A stretch of DNA of 64,000 nucleotides from an uncultured Chloroflexia bacterium (GCA_963744095.1 CAVUSH010000006.1:133670-197669); one strand, 5' to 3'. Positions 6,228 through 28,411 are shown, numbered from the stretch's first letter. Notes: generated by a model not told the origin, from the sequence alone. Numbers and translations are program-made.

Positions 6228-9546
<3,319 letters not shown>

Positions 9547-19705: not shown

Positions 19706-20653
19706 ATGGCTCACGCGATCGAGGTGCGCGGCCTGACGCGGTGGTACGGCAAGCGGCGCGGAGTCATCGAGCTCGACGTCGCGGTCGAGGAGGGCGAGGT
19801 CTTCGGATTTCTCGGCCCGAACGGCGCCGGCAAGACGACGACGATCCGGATGCTGATGGGCCTCATCCGGCCGAGCGCAGGCGCGGCCACGATCTGGGGC
19901 CTGGACGCCTGGCGTGATGCCCCGGCGGTCCACCGACGGGTCGCCCATCTTGGCAGCGACCCCGGCTACCTCGGCGAGCTCACCGCCGCCCAGACGCTCG
20001 ACCACGTGGCGGCGCTGCGGGGCGTCGCGAAGGGCGCCTGGCGGCCGCTGGCGGAGCGCCTCGAGCTGGACCCCACGGTCCAGGTGAAGAAGCTGTCCCG
20101 CGGCAACCGCCAGAAGGTGGGGGTCGTCCAGGTGTTCATGGGCGCCGAGCCGCTGCTCGTCATGGACGAGCCCTCGACGGGCCTGGACCCGCTCATGCAG
20201 CGCGAGTTCCTGAGCCTCGTGGCGGAAGCTCGGGCGGCCGGCCGGACGGTCTTCCTGTCGTCGCACAACCTGACCGAGGTGGAGCGCGCCTGCGACCGGG
20301 TCGCGATCATCCGCGAGGGACGCCTGGTGAAGATCGCCACGGTGGCCGCCCTCGTCGGCGACCACACCCGCTCGATGAACCTCGTGCTCGCCAGCCCGGC
20401 GGAGCCGGCGACCTTCGACCTCCCGGGGGTGACGGTCCTCTCCAGCACCGGCCAGGACGTCCACGTGATGGTCCGCGGCGACGTGAACCCACTCCTCCGC
20501 CGCCTGGCCGGCCTCGAGGTCCGCGACATCTCGATCACCACGCCCGACGTCGAGGACCTCTTCTTCCGCTACTACGATGGGTCCGTGGCCGGCTCGGAAG
20601 GGCGGACGGCCGCGGCGAACGCGACCGAGACCCCGCTGGAGGTGCCGCGATGA
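19706..20653 (+). CDS. ABC transporter ATP-binding protein (ABC-2/drug-exporter type)
   Basis: Walker A GPNGAGKTTT, signature LSRGNRQKV, Walker B LLVMDEPSTGLD, H-loop SSHNL. The ATG at 19706 is preceded by GGAGG. Confidence 0.92.
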   Translation: MAHAIEVRGLTRWYGKRRGVIELDVAVEEGEVFGFLGPNGAGKTTTIRMLMGLIRPSAGAATIWGLDAWRDAPAVHRRVAHLGSDPGYLGELTAAQTLDHVAALRGVAKGAWRPLAERLELDPTVQVKKLSRGNRQKVGVVQVFMGAEPLLVMDEPSTGLDPLMQREFLSLVAEARAAGRTVFLSSHNLTEVERACDRVAIIREGRLVKIATVAALVGDHTRSMNLVLASPAEPATFDLPGVTVLSSTGQDVHVMVRGDVNPLLRRLAGLEVRDISITTPDVEDLFFRYYDGSVAGSEGRTAAANATETPLEVPR

Positions 20654-21453
20654 CCGGGCTCGCGTTCCGCCTCGAGATGCGGCGCAGCCGGATGGTTGCC
20701 TTCTGGCTGGCCGTCATCGTGCTTGCCTACGGCGGGATCATCGCGGCGATGTACCCGATCCTGCTGGAGAACGCGGCGGCGCTCGAGGACTACATGAAGA
20801 TCTTCCCGAAGGAGCTCATGGCGGCCTTCGGCATGACGGGCAGTCTCGTCGATCCCGGGGTCTTCTTCGGGACCTATATCGGGAGCATGCTGTGGCCCGT
20901 CGTCGCGGCGATCGCGGCGATCATCCTCGCCACCCGCCCGGTCGCGGCCGACGTGGACCGGGGCTGGGCAGATGTGGTCCTGGGCACGCCCCTCACTCGA
21001 GCGCGGTTCCTCGCGGCCGCCATCGCCTCGCAGGCGCTCGTGCTCGCCGCGCTCGCCGCTGCGACCGTGACCGGCGTGCTGGTGATCGGCCGGCTCGTCG
21101 GCGCCGACTTCGACGTCGGGCGCTTCGCCGCGGCGACCGTCGTCCTGTGGCTGTTCGGCTGCGCGGTCGGCGGCGTCACGTCGCTCATCGGGGCCGTCAC
21201 CCTCAGCCGGGCGATCGCCGGCGGCCTGGCCGCGGGGATCCTGATCCTGATGTATCTCATGAACGTCGTGGCCCAGGTCCAGGTCGACCTGGCCTGGGTG
21301 GGGGACTTCGGCGCGTTCAAATACCTGCTCACGACCGACCTGATCGACACGGGCATCATGCCGTGGACGTCGGTCGCGATCTTCGCGATCGTGGCGGTGG
21401 CGGGCTGGCTGGGCGCGGTCCTCGTCTTCCGGCGCCGGGACCTCCTCGCCTGA
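20650..21453 (+). CDS. ABC-2 family transporter permease
   Basis: 267 aa, 6 predicted TM. The start overlaps the ATPase stop (ATGA). Confidence 0.65.
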   Translation: MTGLAFRLEMRRSRMVAFWLAVIVLAYGGIIAAMYPILLENAAALEDYMKIFPKELMAAFGMTGSLVDPGVFFGTYIGSMLWPVVAAIAAIILATRPVAADVDRGWADVVLGTPLTRARFLAAAIASQALVLAALAAATVTGVLVIGRLVGADFDVGRFAAATVVLWLFGCAVGGVTSLIGAVTLSRAIAGGLAAGILILMYLMNVVAQVQVDLAWVGDFGAFKYLLTTDLIDTGIMPWTSVAIFAIVAVAGWLGAVLVFRRRDLLA

Positions 21454-21454
21454 T

Positions 21455-22153
21455 TCAGATGACGCCGCGACCGCGGACCATGCCGGGCTGCATCTCGGTC
21501 GCCGCGACGATGTGGCGACGGTTCAAGAGGGCGAAGCTGTAGCGGGAGATGACCCGACGGTCGGCGAGCGAGCGGGTCCGAACGTCGGTCATGGGGATCC
21601 ACACCGGGCTGGGCGATTCGATGAATGCCGACAGGACCCCCTCCGGGTTGAGGTGAACCTCGCCGGTGAGGGTGTGACCGGGGGTCACCACGATGAGGAG
21701 ACAGGTCCGCTTCAGCAGGAACTCGCGGCCTGGTGCTTCGGGCTCGTCGACGTCGGCCGCCTGTCCGATGAGCGTCACCTCGTCCGGGCTCACCCAGATG
21801 CTGGGCGAGGTCACCTTGGTCGGGTCGCCGTTGCGGCGCAGGACGGTGACGTCGCGGAGCTGGATCAGGCCAGGGTTGCTGTTCACGAAGTCGGACAGCC
21901 GGTGATGGAGGCCGATCAACACGCTTCCCGAGAGCCGGAGATGCTGGCCCACGAGCTCGATCGGGAGCCCTTCGGCCCGCTCGGCGGCTGTTGGCGGCGC
22001 GACCGCCTCGACGACGAGGGCTTCGAGATGCGTCGCCGCATCGCCGTCGACGATGTCGTCGTCGCGTTCGGGGACGATCGCGTCGAGCGTCGTTGCAGGA
22101 CCGAGCGCAGCGGCGACGGCCTGGTCGCCGTCGGCGCGTGGTTGATCGGTCAT
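21455..22153 (-). CDS. Hypothetical protein, module A' (divergent A domain with acidic N-terminal tail)
   Basis: 232 aa from the internal ATG at 22153, 19 nt after the stop of the B gene. Residues ~65-215 keep the landmarks of the A domain (RLSDFVN, PDEVTLI, GHTLTGEVH, WIPMTDV, LLNRRH). The upstream part of the 406-aa track ORF lies inside the B gene. Confidence 0.55.
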   Translation of the reverse strand: MTDQPRADGDQAVAAALGPATTLDAIVPERDDDIVDGDAATHLEALVVEAVAPPTAAERAEGLPIELVGQHLRLSGSVLIGLHHRLSDFVNSNPGLIQLRDVTVLRRNGDPTKVTSPSIWVSPDEVTLIGQAADVDEPEAPGREFLLKRTCLLIVVTPGHTLTGEVHLNPEGVLSAFIESPSPVWIPMTDVRTRSLADRRVISRYSFALLNRRHIVAATEMQPGMVRGRGVI

Positions 22154-22172
22154 GGCAGAGCGCCGTCCTGGG

Positions 22173-23081
22173 TCAGCCCGGATCGGCGGCCGCATCTGCC
22201 GCCGCTGTGGCACGATCGGCGGGCGGCGCGACCGCGACGGGGCGGGCCACGGCCCCGGCACGCGGCGCGGGCGAGGTTCGGCGGCGACGACGCGGCGTGA
22301 CCGGGTTGAGCAGAACCGGCCACCAGTCGCAGGCGCAGAGGCCCTGCGGGCAGCCCGGATGGGGCAGGCGCGGCGCGTGGAGCTCGTCGGTGATCGGGAA
22401 GATCCGCCCGTTGTCGGCGCGACAGGCCGCACAGCACGATGCGCCGACCAGCTCCGCTTCCCGCGAGACCGCCTCGAGCGCCCTGAGCGTCGCGGCCACG
22501 CCCTCCCGGTGAAGGGCAACGATGTCGTCGGCGGGAGGAGGATCACCGCCGGCCTCTTCGAACAGCGCGGCGGCCTGTCGCCGCCGGATCCGGCACACGT
22601 CGTCCCAGCGCTTGTCGCGTCGGGCGGCCCGGACGGCGCGCTCCGCGGCGGCCAGGTAGAGCGTGCGTGCCGCATGGACGGCAGCGGCCGTCAGCGGTGC
22701 GTCCTCCGCCTGTCGCCGGCGGTTGGCCGGTACGCCGGCAAGCTGCGCGAGGTGGAGCCAGCGGCGCCGCTCGCGCGCCCAGCTCTGCTCATCGGACTTG
22801 CGCTTGCGCTGGGCCTCGAAGACCTCGACCGCGGCCTCGGTCAGGTAGATCGCCCGGCCCTCGGAGTGCCGGACGACGATCGGGAGGCGACAGCGTGGGC
22901 ACAGCCGGGTGTGATCAGGGGGTGGGTCGACCACGACTCCGCAGTTGGGGCAGGCGGCGCCGATCACGGGCGCGGGCAGCGGCGGCTCAGGCGGAGGTGG
23001 CTCGACTTCCGCGGGCAGCTCGACATTCCTGGCGGAGCGGTCGAGACCCAGGAGCCTCAGAAGAAACGCTATCTGGATCAC
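22173..23081 (-). CDS. Hypothetical protein, module B (zinc ribbon + Arg-rich helical region + Cys/His knuckle)
   Basis: 302 aa, GTG start. Blocks: CPNCG-x12-CPRCR, IYLTEAAVEVFEA, a helical Arg-rich middle and CCAACRADNGRIFPI...PRLPHPGCPQGLCACDWW. It is collinear with the C-terminal 245 aa of the 569-aa neighbour. Confidence 0.6.
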   Translation of the reverse strand: MIQIAFLLRLLGLDRSARNVELPAEVEPPPPEPPLPAPVIGAACPNCGVVVDPPPDHTRLCPRCRLPIVVRHSEGRAIYLTEAAVEVFEAQRKRKSDEQSWARERRRWLHLAQLAGVPANRRRQAEDAPLTAAAVHAARTLYLAAAERAVRAARRDKRWDDVCRIRRRQAAALFEEAGGDPPPADDIVALHREGVAATLRALEAVSREAELVGASCCAACRADNGRIFPITDELHAPRLPHPGCPQGLCACDWWPVLLNPVTPRRRRRTSPAPRAGAVARPVAVAPPADRATAAADAAADPG

Positions 23082-23332
23082 CTCGGTTCATGTGCGCACG
23101 CGGCCGGGACGCCGTCCGAATCCGCGTGCGGCCACTTCGCTGCCACCAGAGGTCATTCCGCAATGTGCTCAGGGTACTCCAGTGCCCGGCACCGATCCCG
23201 CGGGTGCTGAACATTCCGCGAGCTCGAGCGCCGGCAATCCCGTGCCGGGGACCCCGGCCCGGATTGGATCCTCGCCCTCGGCGCCGGCGGGACGCGAATC
23301 GGGCTCGAACCGGGAAGGCCGCCTGGTCGCGA

Positions 23333-25042
23333 TCAGGCGGTGGGGGCCGGTTCGTCCGGGGCGGCTTGCGGGTCCGTGCCCGAGCGACGCCGCAGGTACC
23401 GGCGCATCGTCGTTCGATCACGGGCCGCGAGGTCCCAGCCGCAGCGGCAGAGGCCCTTGGGGCATCCCTCGTGCGGAAGCCGTGGCACGCGCATCTGGTG
23501 GGCGATTCGGAAGATCCGCCGATCGTCTGCTCGGCAGACGTCGCAGCAGGCTGCGCTCACCATCTCCGCGTCACGGGAGACCTCCGCGACGCCGCGCAGC
23601 TCGGCCGCCACGCCCTCGCGGTACGTGGCGATGACGTCCGCCGGAGGCGGCAGCGGCGAGCCGGCGACGCGATACAGGACGGCCGCCTGGTCACGCCGGA
23701 TTCGCGATGCCGTCTCCCAATCGTGGTCGCGTTTCGCGGCCCTGAACGCGCGATCGACCGTAGTCAGGTAGAGCCTCCGAGCGGCCTCCACGGCCTTCTC
23801 GGATAGCGACCCGGCGGCCAGCCTGGATGTCCGCTCGGTCGGGGCGCCGGCCGCAGCCGCGAGCCGGAGCCAGCGTTCTCTCTCCCGCGCCAGCTTCCCG
23901 GCGCTGGCAACACGTCGCCGCTCGGCCTCGAACACCAGCACCGCGGCCTCGGTCAGGTAGACCGCGTGCCCCTCGACGCGCTTCACGATGATCCGCTGGC
24001 GGCACCGCAGGCAGCGCCGGCTGGACACCGGCGGCGGCTCCAGGAGGAGGGCGCAGTACGGGCAGAAGGCCGTGGGCACGGGCGCAGCCAGGGCCTTCTT
24101 CGTGGTGCGGGTGGGCTTGGAGCGCTTGGGCTTGGAGCGCGTGGACGTTCCCCGCGTGGACGTGCCCCGCGCGGACTTGGGGGTCACGGCGGCGGTGGGC
24201 GAGGGCGCAGGTCCCGTTGCGGCCGTGCGCGGGGACCTGGGGGTCACGGCGGCGGTGCGCGCGGGCGCAGGTCCCGCCGTGGCGCTAAGCGTGGACTCGG
24301 GGGTCACGGCGACGATGCGTTCGGCCGGCGAGCGCTCTGCGGCCGGAGGCCCTGCGACGGAGCGGCCTGGCCCGGTGGGGCCGGAGTCCTGGGGCCCGGA
24401 GCCCCCGGACGCGGCCGGGCGCGGCCCGCCGTCGCCGCCGACACGCGGCTGCCAGCCGTCGTGGCGGGTACTGGGCTGGGAGGGCGCCAGGGCCGCTTCG
24501 CCGAGGTTCGGCGCTGGGTGCAGCAGGCCCCGGATCTCAGGCCCGCCCGTTTCTTCTGGGACGTGGGCGACTGGTCGGCCCTCGACCGCCCGAAACAAGC
24601 TCGTCAGATTGCGATTCACGAGGAGGACGTCCACATCCTCCGTGACCGTGGCCGGACCGCGCCGGTAGGTGATGCTGGCATCGGTCATCGGCACCCACGC
24701 CGCGCGCCGCAGGACTGCCCCGAGCGGATCGGACGCCGACGTGCTGTGGACGACCCCCACGATCTCGTAGGGGCCGAGATCGACCACGAACAAGGTGGCA
24801 TAGGTGCGCACCCGACGGGCCGTGTCACCAGGAGGACCGGCCGCGACGACGGCGCAGAGCTCGTCGCGGGCGAGCAGGAGCTCGGGGGTCTCCACGACGT
24901 GGCCATCGGCCAGGCTCTCGAGGCGAGCGTCGTGGATGCGCAGCTCCGGGCTCGCGTTGAGAAGGTCGGTCAGGCGACCGTCCCCGAGATCCAGGCTCCC
25001 GAACAGGCGGCAGTCTGAGGCGTACGCTTCCACCGCGATCAC
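23333..25042 (-). CDS. Hypothetical fusion protein A-linker-B
   Basis: 569 aa, GTG start. Residues 1-155 are the A domain. Residues 156-325 are a disordered P/T/S/G/K-rich linker containing a 60-bp tandem repeat. Residues 326-569 are module B (CPYC-x14-CLRCR; CCDVCRADDRRIFRI...PRLPHEGCPKGLCRCGW). Confidence 0.65.
   Translation of the reverse strand: MIAVEAYASDCRLFGSLDLGDGRLTDLLNASPELRIHDARLESLADGHVVETPELLLARDELCAVVAAGPPGDTARRVRTYATLFVVDLGPYEIVGVVHSTSASDPLGAVLRRAAWVPMTDASITYRRGPATVTEDVDVLLVNRNLTSLFRAVEGRPVAHVPEETGGPEIRGLLHPAPNLGEAALAPSQPSTRHDGWQPRVGGDGGPRPAASGGSGPQDSGPTGPGRSVAGPPAAERSPAERIVAVTPESTLSATAGPAPARTAAVTPRSPRTAATGPAPSPTAAVTPKSARGTSTRGTSTRSKPKRSKPTRTTKKALAAPVPTAFCPYCALLLEPPPVSSRRCLRCRQRIIVKRVEGHAVYLTEAAVLVFEAERRRVASAGKLARERERWLRLAAAAGAPTERTSRLAAGSLSEKAVEAARRLYLTTVDRAFRAAKRDHDWETASRIRRDQAAVLYRVAGSPLPPPADVIATYREGVAAELRGVAEVSRDAEMVSAACCDVCRADDRRIFRIAHQMRVPRLPHEGCPKGLCRCGWDLAARDRTTMRRYLRRRSGTDPQAAPDEPAPTA
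24179..24319. repeat. 60-bp tandem repeat (~2.3 copies) inside the A-B linker coding region
   Basis: Lines 24181, 24241 and 24301 all begin gggtcacggcg(g/a)cg(g/a)tg; the first two also share gcgggcgcaggtccc. The repeat encodes AVTP(E/R/K)S...(T/A)(A/T)GPAP...TA units. Confidence 0.8.
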
Positions 25043-25048
25043 GGGCCT

Positions 25049-25054
25049 ATCTTA
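25049..25054 (-). promoter_or_regulatory. -10-like TAAGAT, 6 nt upstream of the GTG start of the A-B fusion gene (leaderless-type)
   Basis: The minus strand reads ccACTAAGAT-aggccc-GTG. The same ACTAAGAT-N6-start arrangement is found upstream of the A1 paralogue. Confidence 0.45.
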
Positions 25055-25291
25055 GTGGACCGCCGTTCGTGGACCCATAGCGTCTCCGTCCCGGTGAGCG
25101 CTCGTCGGGCTCGGGGCCGTAACGTTCGGAACCGCGATCGGCGGATGCCGGGCGGCCCGCGTGGGCGAGGTTGCGCAGGACACGGCGGCGGCTCGCCCAC
25201 GTTGACTGTCAGGGCGGGTCGACGCCGATCGTCCGGCCCGGCGAGCCGCGGACGCCGGGTTCGGAGCGCGAGCCCGAAGTCTCCGCTCAGG

Positions 25292-25903
25292 TCAGAGAAT
25301 GGGCTCCGCCGGCTGCCAGGTGGTCGCTTCGTCACGATCCGGGCGGTCGTCGTCGCGGAGCGTGCCGGTGAGGTCGAGCGCGCCTGGCGCGGCGAGCCGG
25401 GGCGCCCCGGGAACCTCCCAGGGAAGGACCGCGCTCGCCAGCTCGACGGCCCGAAACGAGCTCGCCATGTTCCGGTTGACGACGAGCGTTGCCACAGCGT
25501 CCCTGACCGGGTCTTCACCCAGGTGGTAGACGACGATGACATCGGTCAGTGGCACCCACGCCGCGCGTCGCAGGACCGCCCCGAGCGGATCGGACGCCGG
25601 AGTGCCATGGACCGCGCCCACGACTTGATATGGGCCGAGATCCACCTCCACCCGGGTGGCAAGGGTGCGCAACCGGCGGGTCACGTCGCCCCGCGGTCCG
25701 CTCGCCACCACGGCGTAGAGCTCGTCGCGGGCGACCGTAAGCTCGGGGGTCTCCATCACGTGGCCGTCGGCCAGGCTCTCGAGGCGGGCGTCCCGAATCG
25801 AGAGCTCGGGGCTCGCGTTGAGAAAGTCGGTCAGGCGACCATCCCCGGAGTCGACTTGACCGAAGAGGCGACAGTCCCCGGCGTACGCCTCCAGTGCGAC
25901 CAT
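25292..25903 (-). CDS. Hypothetical protein, module A1 (standalone A domain)
   Basis: 203 aa. 108 of the first 154 residues are identical to the N-terminus of the 569-aa fusion protein in an ungapped hand alignment. Confidence 0.65.
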   Translation of the reverse strand: MVALEAYAGDCRLFGQVDSGDGRLTDFLNASPELSIRDARLESLADGHVMETPELTVARDELYAVVASGPRGDVTRRLRTLATRVEVDLGPYQVVGAVHGTPASDPLGAVLRRAAWVPLTDVIVVYHLGEDPVRDAVATLVVNRNMASSFRAVELASAVLPWEVPGAPRLAAPGALDLTGTLRDDDRPDRDEATTWQPAEPIL

Positions 25904-25909
25904 GGCACC

Positions 25910-25915
25910 ATCTTA
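25910..25915 (-). promoter_or_regulatory. -10-like TAAGAT, 6 nt upstream of the A1 ATG (leaderless-type)
   Basis: The minus strand reads ggACTAAGAT-ggtgcc-ATG, duplicated together with the A domain. Confidence 0.45.
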
Positions 25916-25963
25916 GTCCTCCGTCCGGTGAACCGCCGCAGGAATCCTGTCGCGCTCCGGCGG

Positions 25964-25992
25964 TTGCGGGATCCGGCCGATCGCCGTACACT
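25964..25992 (+). promoter_or_regulatory. Putative sigma70-type promoter for rplU-rpmA (TTGCGG-N17-TACACT)
   Basis: The -35-like and -10-like hexamers have a 17-nt spacer and lie ~113 nt upstream of the rplU ATG. Confidence 0.45.
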
Positions 25993-26104
25993 CGCCATTC
26001 GCGCCCGGCAGGTCCGGACGCCGCGCTGTGCCACCCGCGGCCCACCCCGGCCGCTTCACCAGCGGCCCCCCGCGCCCGCGCGCCACGGCCCAACCCGGAG
26101 ACCC

Positions 26105-26764
26105 ATGTACGCAGTCATCGAGACCGGCGGGAAGCAGTACCGCGTCGAGGTCGGCACCGAGCTCGCGGTCGAGCTCCTCGAGGTCGAGGCGGGCCAGGAG
26201 ATCACGCTCGAGCGCGTTCTCCTCGTGGCGGACGGCGACGAGGCGGCGATCGGCCGTCCGGTCGTCGACGGCGCCACGGTCAGCGCCACGGTCCTGCGCA
26301 ACGACCGCGCGGACAAGGTCATCTCGTTCAAGTACAAGCCGAAAGCCCGCCGCCGGGTCAAGAAGGGCCACCGCCAGGAGCAGACGGTCCTCCGGATCAC
26401 CGACGTGACCCTCAACGGGAAGAGCGCCGCGGAGGAGGCCCGGAAGATCGCCGAGGCGAAGAAGACCGAGCGGCAGCGCCTCGAGGAGGTGGCCGCAACC
26501 CAGGCGGCCGCCGACGCCGCGCTCGCCGCGACCCTCGCCGCGAAGACCGCCGAAGCCGCCGAGGCAGCCGGGGTGGCTGCGGCCGAGGCCGAGGCGCCGA
26601 AGAAGGCCCGCCCCCGGGCGGCGAAGCCCGCCGCCGCGAAGCCCGCCGCCGCGAAGCCCACGGCTGCGAAGCCCGCGGCTGCGAAGCCCGCGGCTGCCCC
26701 GCCCGCCGAGGCGGATGCGGCACCAAAGCCGAAGCGGACACGCGCCGCCCAGAAGGAAGACTGA
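26105..26764 (+). CDS. rplU: 50S ribosomal protein L21 with ~115-aa Ala/Lys/Glu-rich C-terminal extension
   Basis: MYAVIETGGKQYRVEVG...KVISFKYKPKARRRVKKGHRQEQTVLRITDV is canonical L21. The tail contains five AAKPA units. Confidence 0.92.
   Translation: MYAVIETGGKQYRVEVGTELAVELLEVEAGQEITLERVLLVADGDEAAIGRPVVDGATVSATVLRNDRADKVISFKYKPKARRRVKKGHRQEQTVLRITDVTLNGKSAAEEARKIAEAKKTERQRLEEVAATQAAADAALAATLAAKTAEAAEAAGVAAAEAEAPKKARPRAAKPAAAKPAAAKPTAAKPAAAKPAAAPPAEADAAPKPKRTRAAQKED
26621..26695 (+). repeat. 15-bp tandem repeat x5 (gcgaagccc[gc]c[gc]gc[ct]) encoding (AKPAA)n in the L21 tail
   Basis: Five consecutive in-frame 15-bp units are directly visible. Confidence 0.85.
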
Positions 26765-26767
26765 CCG

Positions 26768-27100
26768 ATGGCCCACAAGAAGGCAGGCTCCAGCTCCAGA
26801 AACGGCCGCGATTCGGCCGGTCAGCGCCTTGGCGTGAAGGCCGGCGACGGACAGCTCGTTCCCGCCGGCTCCATCATCGTCCGCCAGCGCGGGATGACGT
26901 TCCTCGCCGGCACGGGCACGGGCCTCGGGCGCGACTACACGGTCTTCGCCACGGTCACCGGTCGGGTCCGCTTCGAGCACCAGACCCGCAGCAAGAAGCG
27001 CATCCGCGTCGAGCCGGTGGTCACGGAGGCCGCCGCGGTCGCCGAGGCACCGGCAGCCGCCGAGACCGCGGCCGCCGAGACCGCGGCCGCCGGCGCCTGA
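26768..27100 (+). CDS. rpmA: 50S ribosomal protein L27 with Ala-rich C-terminal tail
   Basis: [24 protein letters not shown]...GSIIVRQRG is canonical. The tail is [23 protein letters not shown]. Confidence 0.93.
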
Positions 27101-27121
27101 CGCGGACGATCCGAGGTTCCG

Positions 27122-27337
27122 ATGAAGCAGGGCATTCACCCCAAGTACTACAAGGCCTCCGTCCACTGCGGCACGTGCGGGACGGAGTTCGAGGTGGGCT
27201 CCACCCGGGAGTCTCTCCGCGTCGATGTCTGCAGCAGCTGCCACCCGTTCTTCACCGGCAAGCAGATGATCGTGGACACGGCCGGCCAGGTGGAGCGCTT
27301 CCAGCGTCGCCTGGACCGCGCTTCGACCGGCCGCTGA
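27122..27337 (+). CDS. rpmE: 50S ribosomal protein L31 (Zn-binding type A)
   Basis: MKQGIHPKYY...HCGTCG...VCSSCHPFFTGKQ. Confidence 0.93.
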   Translation: MKQGIHPKYYKASVHCGTCGTEFEVGSTRESLRVDVCSSCHPFFTGKQMIVDTAGQVERFQRRLDRASTGR

Positions 27338-27374
27338 CCACGGACCGTCCGACGCCGGCGACCACGGCGATCGC

Positions 27375-27398
27375 ACGGCGGGCCGTCCGGCCCGCCGT
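27375..27398 (+). terminator. GC-rich hairpin downstream of rpmE (possible terminator or attenuator)
   Basis: acggcgggcc-gtcc-ggcccgccgt forms a perfect 10-bp stem. There is no clear U-tract. Confidence 0.3.
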
Positions 27399-27424
27399 CG
27401 TGACTTCCGGCCGGTAGACCGGCG

Positions 27425-28411
27425 ATGGCCCGTTTCTCGTACGGCGGCCAGGCCCTGATCGAGGGCGTGCTCATGCGCGGCCGCGACGCGATCGCGGTCG
27501 CCCTGCGCCACCCCGACGGCCGGATCGTCTGGTCCGACGAGCGGCTTGGCACGGGCTTCCGCGGCACCCGCTCCGCGAAGCTGCCGCTCGTGCGCGGCCT
27601 CGTCCTGCTGTACGAGACGCTCGTCATCGGGACGCGGTGGCTCGTCCGCTCGGCCGGGGTGGCGGCGGCCCAGGACCTCGCGCCGGCCACCACGTCCGAT
27701 GGGCGCCGGGCCGATGCAGCCGACCTGGGCAAGGGATCGATCGCCCTGATGCTCGTCTTCACGCTCGTGCTCGGCCTCGGGCTCTTCTTCTTCGTTCCCC
27801 TGCTCGTCGCGCGGTTCGTCGCCGGAGGCCAGCCGGGGATCGTTGAGCGCGCCGTTGAGGGCGTGGTCCAGGTGGCGATCTTCCTGGGCTACCTCATCCT
27901 CATCGGGCGGACTTCCGATGTGCGGCGAACATTCCAGTACCACGGCGCGGAGCACATGACCATCCACGCCCTGGAGGCCGGCGACCCGCTCACGGTCGAC
28001 GCGGTCCGGAGGTACCCGACGGCCCATCCGCGCTGCGGCACGGAGTTCCTCGTCGTGGTCATCCTCGTTTCGATCGTCACGTTCTCGATCGTGGGACGGC
28101 AGTCGCTCCCCGTGATGATCATCAGCCGGCTCGTCCTGATCCCCGTCATCGCCGCGGTCAGCTACGAGCTCCTCCGCTTCGGCGCCCGACACCGCGGCAA
28201 CGCGCTCGTCCGCGTCCTCTTCGAGCCGGGCATCTGGGTCCAGAAGATCACCACGAAGCAGCCGACCGACGACATGATCGAGGTCGCGATCGTCAGCATG
28301 GAGCAGGCGATGACGGCCGACGGCGAGACGCTGCCGGCGGGGAGCGGCTCCATCGCCCGCTCGCCGCTCGTCCTCGCGGGAGCACCCCCGGCGCCCGCCG
28401 TCGAGGCCTGA
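27425..28411 (+). CDS. DUF1385 family membrane protein (PrmC-associated, YqhQ-like)
   Basis: The N-terminal YGGQALIEGVLMRG and HGAEH motif are present. It shows the classic rpmE-DUF1385-prfA-prmC neighbourhood. Confidence 0.8.
   Translation: MARFSYGGQALIEGVLMRGRDAIAVALRHPDGRIVWSDERLGTGFRGTRSAKLPLVRGLVLLYETLVIGTRWLVRSAGVAAAQDLAPATTSDGRRADAADLGKGSIALMLVFTLVLGLGLFFFVPLLVARFVAGGQPGIVERAVEGVVQVAIFLGYLILIGRTSDVRRTFQYHGAEHMTIHALEAGDPLTVDAVRRYPTAHPRCGTEFLVVVILVSIVTFSIVGRQSLPVMIISRLVLIPVIAAVSYELLRFGARHRGNALVRVLFEPGIWVQKITTKQPTDDMIEVAIVSMEQAMTADGETLPAGSGSIARSPLVLAGAPPAPAVEA

Follow-up and report, generated by a model that had tools for sequence, protein, structure and literature searches.

The window, a stretch of 64,000 nucleotides from a Limnocylindria (Chloroflexota) genome, carries at 21455-25903 an array of four genes on the minus strand, to which all features given below belong. 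The array is built from two modules, with A present in three copies and B in two. Standalone A1 (25292-25903, 203 aa), recognized by BLAST to the fused A module, is followed by a fusion gene (23333-25042, 569 aa) in which, according to the alignment of the junction, an A1-type module is joined in frame to a complete protein of the "long B" type. Then come short B (22173-23081, 302 aa), related by BLAST to the fused B, and A' (21455-22153, 232 aa), which starts 19 nt past the short-B stop and was assigned through Pfam DUF6812. These four open reading frames, described in an earlier note, were recovered at the same positions, and all display coding-type codon composition (GC3 83-86%, GC2 47-61%). 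A mechanical reading frame at 21455-22675 (406 aa) was rejected as the A' gene because it overruns A' and its 5' excess has non-coding codon-position GC; a database protein is 100% identical to the 232-aa A'.

Reading of the sequence located a -10-like hexamer, TAAGAT, 6 nt ahead of the A1 ATG (25910-25915) and again 6 nt ahead of the GTG start of the fusion gene (25049-25054). The arrangement of ACTAAGATnGnnCC plus start is common to both genes, and in A1-type genes elsewhere the position of the A1 hexamer is taken by TACCAT or TAGCAT. The TAAGAT ahead of A1 suggests a putative promoter and a leaderless transcript. Its position before the GTG of the fusion gene supports a start at 25042 rather than that of the 566-aa database call. 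Scans for sigma-70 promoters and terminators in 21000-26300 gave no match, and an Rfam scan of 20500-27500 found no structured RNA.

The composition of the fusion protein became clear from a MAFFT alignment with unfused long-B proteins. The segment behind the A module, which the earlier note had taken for a linker, corresponds to the N-terminal half, now degenerate, of a long-B protein that is present in full: a disordered, Pro/Ala-rich, strongly basic region with a pI of 11.7 (24068-24580, from composition and alignment) that includes three tandem repeats of 60 nt (20 aa) at 24168-24347. The old long-B start, MPKMRGLLH, persists in it as GPEIRGLLH, and the vestige PEIRGLLH lies at 24518-24541. 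A database relative of the fusion, P0006, still reads SSMPKIRGLLH at the junction. The same junction is common to seven related database proteins (P0002-P0007), among which P0006 and P0007 are N-terminal fragments, and a further entry, P0001, equals the fusion protein of the window at 100% identity. The idea that the long-B N-terminal motif is redundant in fusions was dropped, since RGLL is kept in all of them; the loss is limited to the RLADLF, PPIVV, and VGVMA stretches. Judged from the sequences retrieved, the fusion is confined to one sub-lineage, that of the window.

Module A and its Sm-like barrels

The close kinship between A1 and residues 1-154 of the fusion, noted earlier from a hand alignment, was reproduced with 108 of 154 residues identical without gaps (E 2e-70). 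The fused A module (24581-25042) scores 161-167 bits with the A-family HMM. A', which had been proposed as a remote relative retaining several landmarks, matches A1 and the fused A in BLAST at 27-29% identity (E 4e-5 and 1e-4), and the landmarks RL(S/T)D..N, G.VH, W.P.TD, and NR are invariant columns in an alignment of 22 A sequences; on both grounds, A1 and the fused A are considered homologous to A'. A1-type proteins form a widespread group: database searching retrieved 306 homologues at 58-94% identity. The group consists of standalone proteins of about 203 aa, and by sequence A1 is a member of it and not merely a local copy. For A', 514 homologues were retrieved, the best 120 of them at 68-100% identity.

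The earlier note could place neither module in a named family, which no longer holds for A. A' passes the Pfam model DUF6812 (PF20660) with 39.6 bits against a gathering cut-off of 27.1 (E 5.3e-10) over two stretches, and the PF20660 annotation is precomputed on all listed A' orthologues. A1 stays below the cut-off with 15.6 bits, and the fusion protein has no DUF6812 match at E ≤ 1. Relative to DUF6812, a Pfam family without assigned function, A1 and the fused A are a divergent branch, and the A modules of the array are distinguished as a tandem pair linked to module B. A literature search on DUF6812, PF20660, or Limnocylindria together with Sm-like proteins or zinc ribbons found nothing relevant.

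Structure prediction with AF2, performed on single chains for both A' and B, folds A' into two strongly bent five-stranded beta-barrels (pLDDT 77.5, pTM 0.73). In a Foldseek search of this model against the PDB, the top 50 matches were all Sm/LSm proteins, with probabilities of 0.99-1.00, E values of 5e-3 to 7e-2, and target TM scores of 0.46-0.66. The sole sequence signal in this direction is a weak match to Sm D3 (E about 1), and the A pattern G...RLsDfvN...L.dv recalls the Sm1 motif. An internal repeat, by which one half of A is related to the other, was detected with hhalign (P = 8e-4). In A', an N-terminal acidic tail with a conserved IVDGDAATHLEAL motif precedes the two DUF6812/Sm-like barrels (core 21458-21973), whereas in A1 the predicted tandem barrel occupies residues 1-155 and the acidic tail follows it.

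The likeness to Sm/LSm proteins thus concerns the small, strongly bent five-stranded barrel of the model, and clear differences exist. In canonical Sm proteins a helix precedes strand 1, whereas the predicted A barrels have a helix between strands 2 and 3. Sm, LSm, and Hfq proteins are single domains assembled in hexameric or heptameric rings, whereas A has two barrels per chain. The Pfam LSM profile did not match any array protein at E ≤ 1. Because of the helix position and this lack of an LSM match, RNA binding is not transferable from Sm or Hfq to A. Module A is, as modeled, an acidic protein (pI 4.6 in A1, 4.6-5.1 among A proteins) whose two DUF6812 barrels are Sm/LSm-like in fold.

Module B, a zinc-ribbon protein with a Cys/His cluster

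Short B and residues 318-560 of the fusion share 124 of 243 residues (51%, E 1e-74), in agreement with the "half identical" estimated by eye. The B architecture comprises a short N-terminal motif of the type hxxLL(R/G)xLL, a spacer whose length varies, a C4 zinc ribbon, Arg-rich helices, and a Cys/His cluster. In short B the N-terminus is of the hxxLLRLLG type, and its orthologues read MDFLRRLLG and MNLLRRLLG. The long-B consensus contains conserved short motifs within disorder, namely MPKMRGLL..RLADLF, RPPIVV.G, VGVMA, and D..W.LP. The ribbon, the helices, and the terminal cluster, all of them pointed out in the earlier note, are invariant across 15-83 B members. Arg is invariant or almost invariant at more than 15 positions, and the B domains have a pI of 9-10.

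The zinc ribbon lies at 24002-24064 in the fused B (CPYC-x13-CLRC, residues 327-347, from alignment and AF2) and at 22890-22952 in short B. Its presence in both proteins was rightly recognized before, but not its spacing, given then as x12/14: both copies read C-x2-C-x13-C-x2-C, in line with the invariant CPxC-x13-CxxC of the family (alignment columns C11, C14, C28, and C31). A C4 ribbon has two CxxC knuckles placed on beta-hairpins, with which the B sequence and model agree. The ribbon strands are modeled with pLDDT above 90, and the ribbon packs against the helical domain in a model whose block-mean pLDDT for ribbon and helices is 80-97. The cluster was defined by invariant columns as CC-x2-C-x20-H-x2-C-x4-C-x-C-x-W in the fused B (residues 499-536, 23435-23548) and lies at 22323-22436 in short B. 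Its invariants are six Cys and one His, plus D190, and AF2 models it at low confidence. Sub-threshold matches to zf-C3HC4_3, a family of RING-type cross-brace fingers with eight ordered Cys/His ligands, occurred in 12 of 83 members (best E 0.021). A distant B subfamily has no Cys cluster and no A nearby.

No confident family or fold match was obtained for B in Pfam, NCBIfam, PADLOC, PHROGs, PDB, or BFVD, and to this extent the earlier difficulty in placing it persists; the same resources gave no confident HMM or structure match of A and B to characterized families with a known joint function. Foldseek of the B model against the PDB returned nothing below E 0.1 (a zinc knuckle and generic helical repeats only), and PDB profile searches with B sequences produced only noise. 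Among the C4 zinc ribbons known from RNA polymerase subunits and from enzymes that act on nucleic acid, which include RPA12/Rpb9/RpoP, the Fpg zinc finger, and DZR, B weakly resembles RpoP and RPA12. Weak matches to DZR and other Zn_ribbon families occur in as many as 11 of 83 members, and in the fold comparison 27 residues align with the Fpg zinc finger (rmsd 2.9). These likenesses are limited to a generic motif of about 30 residues, and the C4 ribbon proteins have no counterpart of the helical domain and C-terminal cluster of B.

WhiB-like (Wbl) proteins are small, conserved, Cys- and Arg-rich Fe-S regulators found lineage-wide in actinobacteria, high-GC Gram-positive-type bacteria. B can be compared with them by analogy only, as another small, Cys- and Arg-rich protein strongly conserved throughout its lineage: like WhiB, it could couple a metal cluster to regulation. 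Pfam Whib did not match the window proteins or 83 relatives. The WhiB four-Cys motif (C-xn-C-x2-C-x5-C) differs from the B spacing, with its six Cys, one His, and separate C4 ribbon, as do size and architecture. On sequence grounds, module B is a new protein family.

Distribution, A-B linkage, and the upstream element of B genes

Both families are strongly conserved and, as found here, occur essentially only in Limnocylindria, so that the decay of homologues elsewhere, which the earlier note had considered, is not what is seen. The fusion query retrieved 162 database matches, nearly all through its B domain, and among the matches listed for the fusion, A', and A1 queries identities are about 60-90%. 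A B profile matched 584 clusters at the 50% identity level among 1.84 billion representatives. The source names of loci and matches are Limnocylindria or generic Chloroflexota labels, apart from a few.

The association between the modules extends well beyond this genome. Of 80 loci anchored on a B gene, 38 have an A gene no more than 3 kb away, a count inflated by shared ancestry since all loci come from one class, and at least eight arrangements occur. Those seen include co-directional A->B and B->A, divergent and convergent pairs, a triad, a permuted triad, and the fusion. On a complete chromosome, a triad of A', long B, and short B stands between serS and the trp operon. Each family consists of two old paralogues, and A' pairs with short B, A1-type with long B. 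About 30 B loci lack an A gene inside the 3-kb range, and A stands alone in five of six A-anchored contigs (three of four long contigs for A', two of two for A1-type). Linkage is frequent, not obligatory. The flanking genes named earlier for the window, an ABC-2 exporter and rplU, are not conserved neighbors: rplU, rpmA, prfA, DUF1385, and ABC-2 permease genes were found in none of the 80 loci, where the only ABC ATPase matches, at 25-53% identity, are weak and dispersed, and gene calls on eleven long contigs gave varied neighbors.

Short B is preceded by a 12-nt element, GGAGTACCCTGA, located by a site scan at 23169-23180, 86 nt before the start codon. It contains a -10-like hexamer of the form TAnnnT and occurs upstream of both B paralogues. 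In 1.55 Mb, 30 sites with at most one mismatch were detected, 28 of them upstream of a B-family gene and in the same orientation; about 0.13 exact sites are expected from base composition. The pairing potential of the element as RNA is no greater than in shuffled controls. The motif sequence is not U-rich. A wider regulon was sought with a 14-mer, GGAGTACCCTGAGC, in metagenome contigs; the 120 matches listed are random contigs, none of which carries B, and give no information on it.

Proposed function and alternatives

The recurrence of A beside B throughout the class, together with their fusion in one sub-lineage, makes a joint function probable, perhaps one that involves nucleic acid. The Rosetta-stone reading of the earlier note gains from the linkage and from the recurrence of the fusion in database proteins. 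The proposal preferred here, to which slightly less than an even chance is given, is that A and B form a complex with nucleic acid as its target, in two cognate pairs, and that the B genes are co- or autoregulated. The array would then consist of an A1-type/long B pair and an A'/short B pair. A is proposed to bind B on account of the charge complementarity between acidic A and basic B, together with the fusion. B would supply a basic surface of zinc ribbon and Arg helices, and its Cys cluster may bind metal, either as two Zn or as an Fe-S cluster. The Sm-like barrels, if correctly modeled, could serve as a docking, oligomerizing, or RNA-contacting unit. Co-regulation or autoregulation of the B genes might proceed through GGAGTACCCTGA, a candidate promoter or operator.

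A rather unlikely alternative, although the one that survives best, is that A and B do cooperate, but in a scaffolding or assembly role among proteins and not on nucleic acid; cell division, the envelope, the cytoskeleton, and the maturation of metalloproteins are conceivable settings. The layout of long B, with a short N-terminal peptide, a disordered spacer, and a folded C-terminus, resembles that of tethering or scaffold proteins, and short linear motifs are conserved inside the disordered part. Small Sm/SH3-like barrels often mediate protein-protein contacts, as LSm14 and Edc3-type domains do, and the A' fold matches include entries of this type (2vxe, 6f9w). In addition, no nucleic-acid-binding family was detected in B. 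However, B is very basic, with many invariant Arg residues and a spacer of pI 11.7 beside the zinc ribbon; membrane segments are absent, and division, envelope, or cytoskeleton genes are not recurrent neighbors.

That no partnership exists at all is improbable. In such a case, adjacency would reflect synteny passed down inside a single class, and the fusion would have arisen by accidental, neutral read-through and become fixed in a small sub-lineage. A single fusion type is known, represented by six proteins and one fragment among 508 retrieved family members, A genes are often alone, and a single class stands behind all the data. Against this, proximity has outlasted many rearrangements, which inertia alone would not predict, and the pairing is paralogue-specific. 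The fused proteins are 68-100% identical to one another, dN/dS among the window paralogues is 0.42-0.46, and the charges of A and B are opposite.

A mobile, prophage-derived, or anti-phage module is very improbable, also in the version that regards the B C-terminus as a head-morphogenesis domain like that of MuF/SPP1 gp7. By eye, the B pattern CC..C..D.rIF.I....P.LPH..C....CRC approaches the MuF end, ...D.rtR..H..l.G.v....pP..nCRC, and hhalign pairs exactly these segments. The likeness in spacing (D..rIF...P.H..C..CRC) is superficial, and B has no phage context: hhalign against Mu F and SPP1 gp7 gave a probability of 1.9%, and none of 83 B members matched Phage_Mu_F (PF04233) even at E ≤ 10, a profile that the control Mu F and SPP1 gp7 proteins match at about 1e-32. 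This homology was therefore rejected. A defense, phage, or mobile origin is largely refuted by PADLOC (nothing at E ≤ 1), PHROGs (zinc-ribbon noise only, E ≥ 0.019), an empty BFVD fold search, and IMG/VR, which holds no relatives of A or B; furthermore, the GC content of the array matches that of its flanks, and the genes have housekeeping neighbors at various sites of the chromosome. A reading as a functionless junk family in local expansion, or as an artifact of annotation or assembly, for which only missing annotation and missing expression data speak, is scarcely credible and refuted by conservation, given hundreds of homologues in independent assemblies, the codon-position GC, invariant Cys, His, Arg, and Trp columns, and one fusion junction recurring in several assemblies.

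The novelty lies in the families and their association, not in a mechanism. The pairing of an Sm-like double barrel with a basic zinc protein, together with the natural fusion and the private upstream signal, offers handles for experiments in the form of a predicted interface between the proteins, a candidate binding site, and candidate metal sites. Should RNA or DNA be the target of the A-B complex, a new kind of bacterial Sm-like system would be added, together with a new fold that binds nucleic acid. Otherwise, what is gained is a class-specific marker gene set and a corrected annotation, with A as a DUF6812, Sm-like protein and B as a new family. A broader form of the proposal, which we consider doubtful, sees in A and B an undescribed, class-specific nucleoprotein or regulatory machine that combines tandem Sm-like barrels with a new fold of zinc ribbon, Arg helices, and metal cluster, in two co-duplicated cognate pairs and with B subunits that would recognize, or be controlled through, a private 12-nt signal. 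Limnocylindria are abundant, uncultured Chloroflexota of soil and freshwater, and such a machine, if real, would belong to the core of gene expression in this class, as a part specific to the lineage, and would be no variant of a known system.

The array and its two families

All four minus-strand open reading frames that the earlier note had drawn are present in the ORF listing: A1 (25292-25903, 203 aa), the fusion of an A1-type module with a long B protein (23333-25042, 569 aa), short B (22173-23081, 302 aa) and A' (21455-22153, 232 aa). The paralogy proposed for them by eye is borne out by alignment. A1 and residues 1-154 of the fusion share 108 of 154 residues without a gap (E 2e-70), fusion residues 318-560 are 51% identical to short B (E 1e-74), and A' is a remote relative of A1 and of the fused A module (27-29% identity, E 1e-4 to 4e-5). 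All three similarities are far beyond chance. The landmark motifs first picked out in A correspond to invariant columns of the A-family alignment, and the zinc ribbon is spaced C-x2-C-x13-C-x2-C in both B copies, which corrects the x12/14 spacing first reported.

In all four ORFs GC3 is 83-86%, and GC is distributed over the codon positions as in the coding regions of high-GC genomes (G+C of the window ~72%). The window paralogues give a dN/dS of 0.42-0.46. A 406-aa mechanical ORF (21455-22675), which overruns A' and overlaps short B out of frame, was rejected as a high-G+C artefact; its 5' overrun has a GC2 of 84% and a non-coding codon-position pattern. At the other end of A', the stop codons of the convergent ABC-2 permease gene (ending at 21453) and of A' (ending at 21455) are separated by one base, and no terminator-like hairpin was detected near this point. 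The genes rplU and rpmA (26105-26764 and 26768-27100) encode L21 and L27 proteins with low-complexity tails: an Ala/Lys/Pro-rich C-terminal extension of ~115 residues with AAKPAAAKP repeats in L21, and an Ala-rich tail in L27. Basic tails of this kind seem to be common in this genome.

Database searches retrieved 162 homologues with the fusion as query (nearly all through its B domain), 514 with A' and 306 with A1, with identities mostly of 60-90% among the matches listed. The B profile, searched exhaustively against 1.84 billion representatives, returned 584 clusters at E <= 1e-3, of which 159 reach E <= 1e-30. In a scan of species genomes, 80 B loci were found, and the source names are Limnocylindria or generic Chloroflexota in all but one; the exception, labelled Candidatus Sulfotelmatobacter, may be mis-binned. 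The window itself is assigned to Candidatus Limnocylindria, a Chloroflexota class, by the source names of the homologues. A and B are two real, strongly conserved families, essentially restricted to Limnocylindria in the data searched.

Predicted folds of A and B

The earlier note could place neither module in a named family. For A this no longer holds, as A' passes the gathering threshold of Pfam DUF6812 (39.6 bits against 27.1, in two stretches); A1 stays under it with 15.6 bits, and the fused A module gives no match to this profile. The AlphaFold2 model of the A' core (pLDDT 77.5, pTM 0.73) comprises two five-stranded barrels, and every one of its 50 best fold matches among PDB entries is an Sm/LSm protein, with probabilities of 0.99-1.00, E values of 5e-3 to 7e-2 and target-normalised TM scores of 0.46-0.66. 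A profile search of PDB sequences with module A gave a weak match to Sm D3 and nothing more. The DUF6812 match, the modelled barrels, the Sm/LSm fold matches and the relatedness of its two halves (hhalign P = 8e-4) identify module A as a tandem Sm-like barrel, though not one of the canonical Sm type: the modelled helix is placed between the second and third strands, and a match to the LSM profile is absent. The A proteins are acidic (pI 4.6-5.1). In the acidic N-terminal tail of A', residues 34-46 (22016-22054) read IVDGDAATHLEAL, nearly invariant across A' orthologues within an otherwise variable tail; this segment may be a docking peptide.

For B the earlier statement stands: Pfam, NCBIfam, PADLOC and PHROGs yielded no family beyond generic zinc-ribbon noise, and PDB sequence profiles gave RNA-polymerase-type zinc ribbons alone (E >0.5). 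For the fused B domain, AlphaFold2 gave an overall pLDDT of 77. The model is good for the zinc ribbon and helices, from residue 49 to ~170 (block means 80-97), and poor for the C-terminal Cys/His cluster, as expected from the absence of metals in the model. Foldseek searches of PDB and BFVD with this model found no match below E 0.1. The B C-terminus was also compared with the end of the phage MuF/SPP1 gp7 domain, and a likeness between the two is not supported. Across alignments of 15 to 83 sequences, the invariant columns include the four ribbon cysteines, many arginines, two tryptophans and the C-terminal pattern CC-x2-C-x2-D...LPH-x2-CP-x3-C-x-C-x-W, a cluster that would bind metal. B domains are basic (pI 9-10). 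With its zinc ribbon, helical domain and Cys cluster, B forms a new family. Among the hits of the exhaustive profile search there is also a distant B subfamily (locus L082, 8001-9029; database proteins P0344, P0348, P0351, P0356 and P0362) that keeps the N-terminal motif, ribbon and helices, has an acidic spacer and ends before the Cys/His cluster. At L082, the one locus examined, it lies beside rpsF-ssb-rpsR with no A gene close by.

Origin of the fusion and upstream elements

The relatives of the fusion are mostly long-B proteins of 400-650 aa rather than A-B fusions. They consist of a conserved N-terminus, MPKMRGLLHSRPKIDEAE...RLADLF, a disordered spacer with the short conserved motifs RPPIVV.G, VGVMA and D..W.LP, and the B domain. 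Short-B proteins start with a related motif, e.g., MDFLRRLLG or MNLLRRLLG, and (M)IQIAFLLRLLG in the window, so that an N-terminal hxxLLRxLL peptide is a hallmark of the B family. Alignment with the long-B proteins shows how the fusion is built: an A1-type gene runs on in frame into an entire long-B gene. The former long-B start survives as GPEIRGLLH in fusion residues 167-175, and one relative retains SSMPKIRGLLH at this place. The junction is common to seven related database proteins (P0002-P0007, with N-terminal fragments in P0006 and P0007), which are 65-89% identical to the window fusion in best local alignments; a further entry, P0001, matches it at 100% identity. In an HMM screen of 508 retrieved family members, six A-B fusions were found, all of a single type to which the fragment P0007 also belongs, which points to a single fusion event. 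The disordered spacer of the fusion contains 20-residue units rich in Pro, Ala and Thr, encoded by three tandem 60-nt repeats (24168-24347; two copies have 83% and 68% identity to the reference copy).

A 12-mer, GGAGTACCCTGA, is a specific signal common to the upstream regions of B genes. In the window it occupies 23169-23180 (minus strand), within the 251-nt spacer that precedes short B and 86 nt from its start codon. Across 1.55 Mb of related loci plus the window, 30 sites occur with at most one mismatch; 19 of them are exact, where base composition predicts ~0.13. Of the 30 sites, 28 (window and L001-L087) precede a B-family gene, short or long, in its own orientation, 26 to ~90 nt from the start codon. 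The element includes a TAnnnT hexamer, and its base pairing shows no excess over shuffled controls. It is probably a promoter or operator private to B genes, through which they would be co-regulated or autoregulated. An 11-bp hairpin (GACTGGGCAGC-loop-GCTGCCCAGTC) stands between this element and the Shine-Dalgarno sequence in the long-B genes of L003 (hairpin at 9228-9255) and, in equivalent form, of L006 and L011; all three have the same stem with different loops, hence there is no stem covariation.

In A1-type genes, by contrast, a TAnnnT hexamer is found 6-7 nt upstream of the start codon, a position suggestive of leaderless transcripts. On the minus strand of the window it is TAAGAT, 6 nt before the start codons of A1 (25910-25915) and of the fusion (25049-25054); A1-type genes of other loci have TACCAT or TAGCAT in this position. 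As ACTAAGATnGnnCC and the start codon are common to A1 and the fusion gene, the duplication of A included this putative promoter.

Genomic linkage and possible partnership of A and B

A and B are repeatedly linked and were fused once. In 38 of the 80 loci, B has an A gene no more than 3 kb away; 12 further loci hold a B-B pair without A. The commonest arrangement is A' followed by long B and short B, which on the complete chromosome OY970185.1 is flanked by serS and trpE. Others include short B, A' and long B in this order, A' before short B, short B before A', divergent pairs (A' with short B, A1-type with long B), convergent pairs, and the fusion. Pairing is paralogue-specific, short B going with A' and long B with the A1-type.

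The fusion, this paralogue-specific adjacency and the opposite charges suggest that A would bind B, in line with the joint action that the earlier note had proposed. The complex would act on nucleic acid, as suggested by the Sm-like fold of A and, in B, by the Arg-rich helices, the basic ribbon and the very basic spacer. Together with metal binding by the Cys cluster and control through the 12-mer, this reading is proposed tentatively, with a little less than even confidence. A scaffold or assembly role for the two partners, with no nucleic acid involved, is unlikely, and still deserves some weight.

The remaining neighbours vary and include serS/trp, rpsF-ssb-rpsR, purine genes, cdd/deoA and others. 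No B was found near A on five of six long contigs anchored on A, so the linkage is not obligatory. Such loci would suit two families without a real partnership, which is improbable next to the fusion and the paralogue-specific pairs. An origin in mobile or defence elements is very improbable, and a search of IMG/VR returned no relatives of A or B. That the array is junk is hardly credible.

No mention of DUF6812/PF20660 or of the A and B proteins was found in the literature searched. An acidic A that would bind a basic B, in a complex that would act on nucleic acid, is the preferred reading of two families that, as known here from sequences and models, match with their association no known kind of system.
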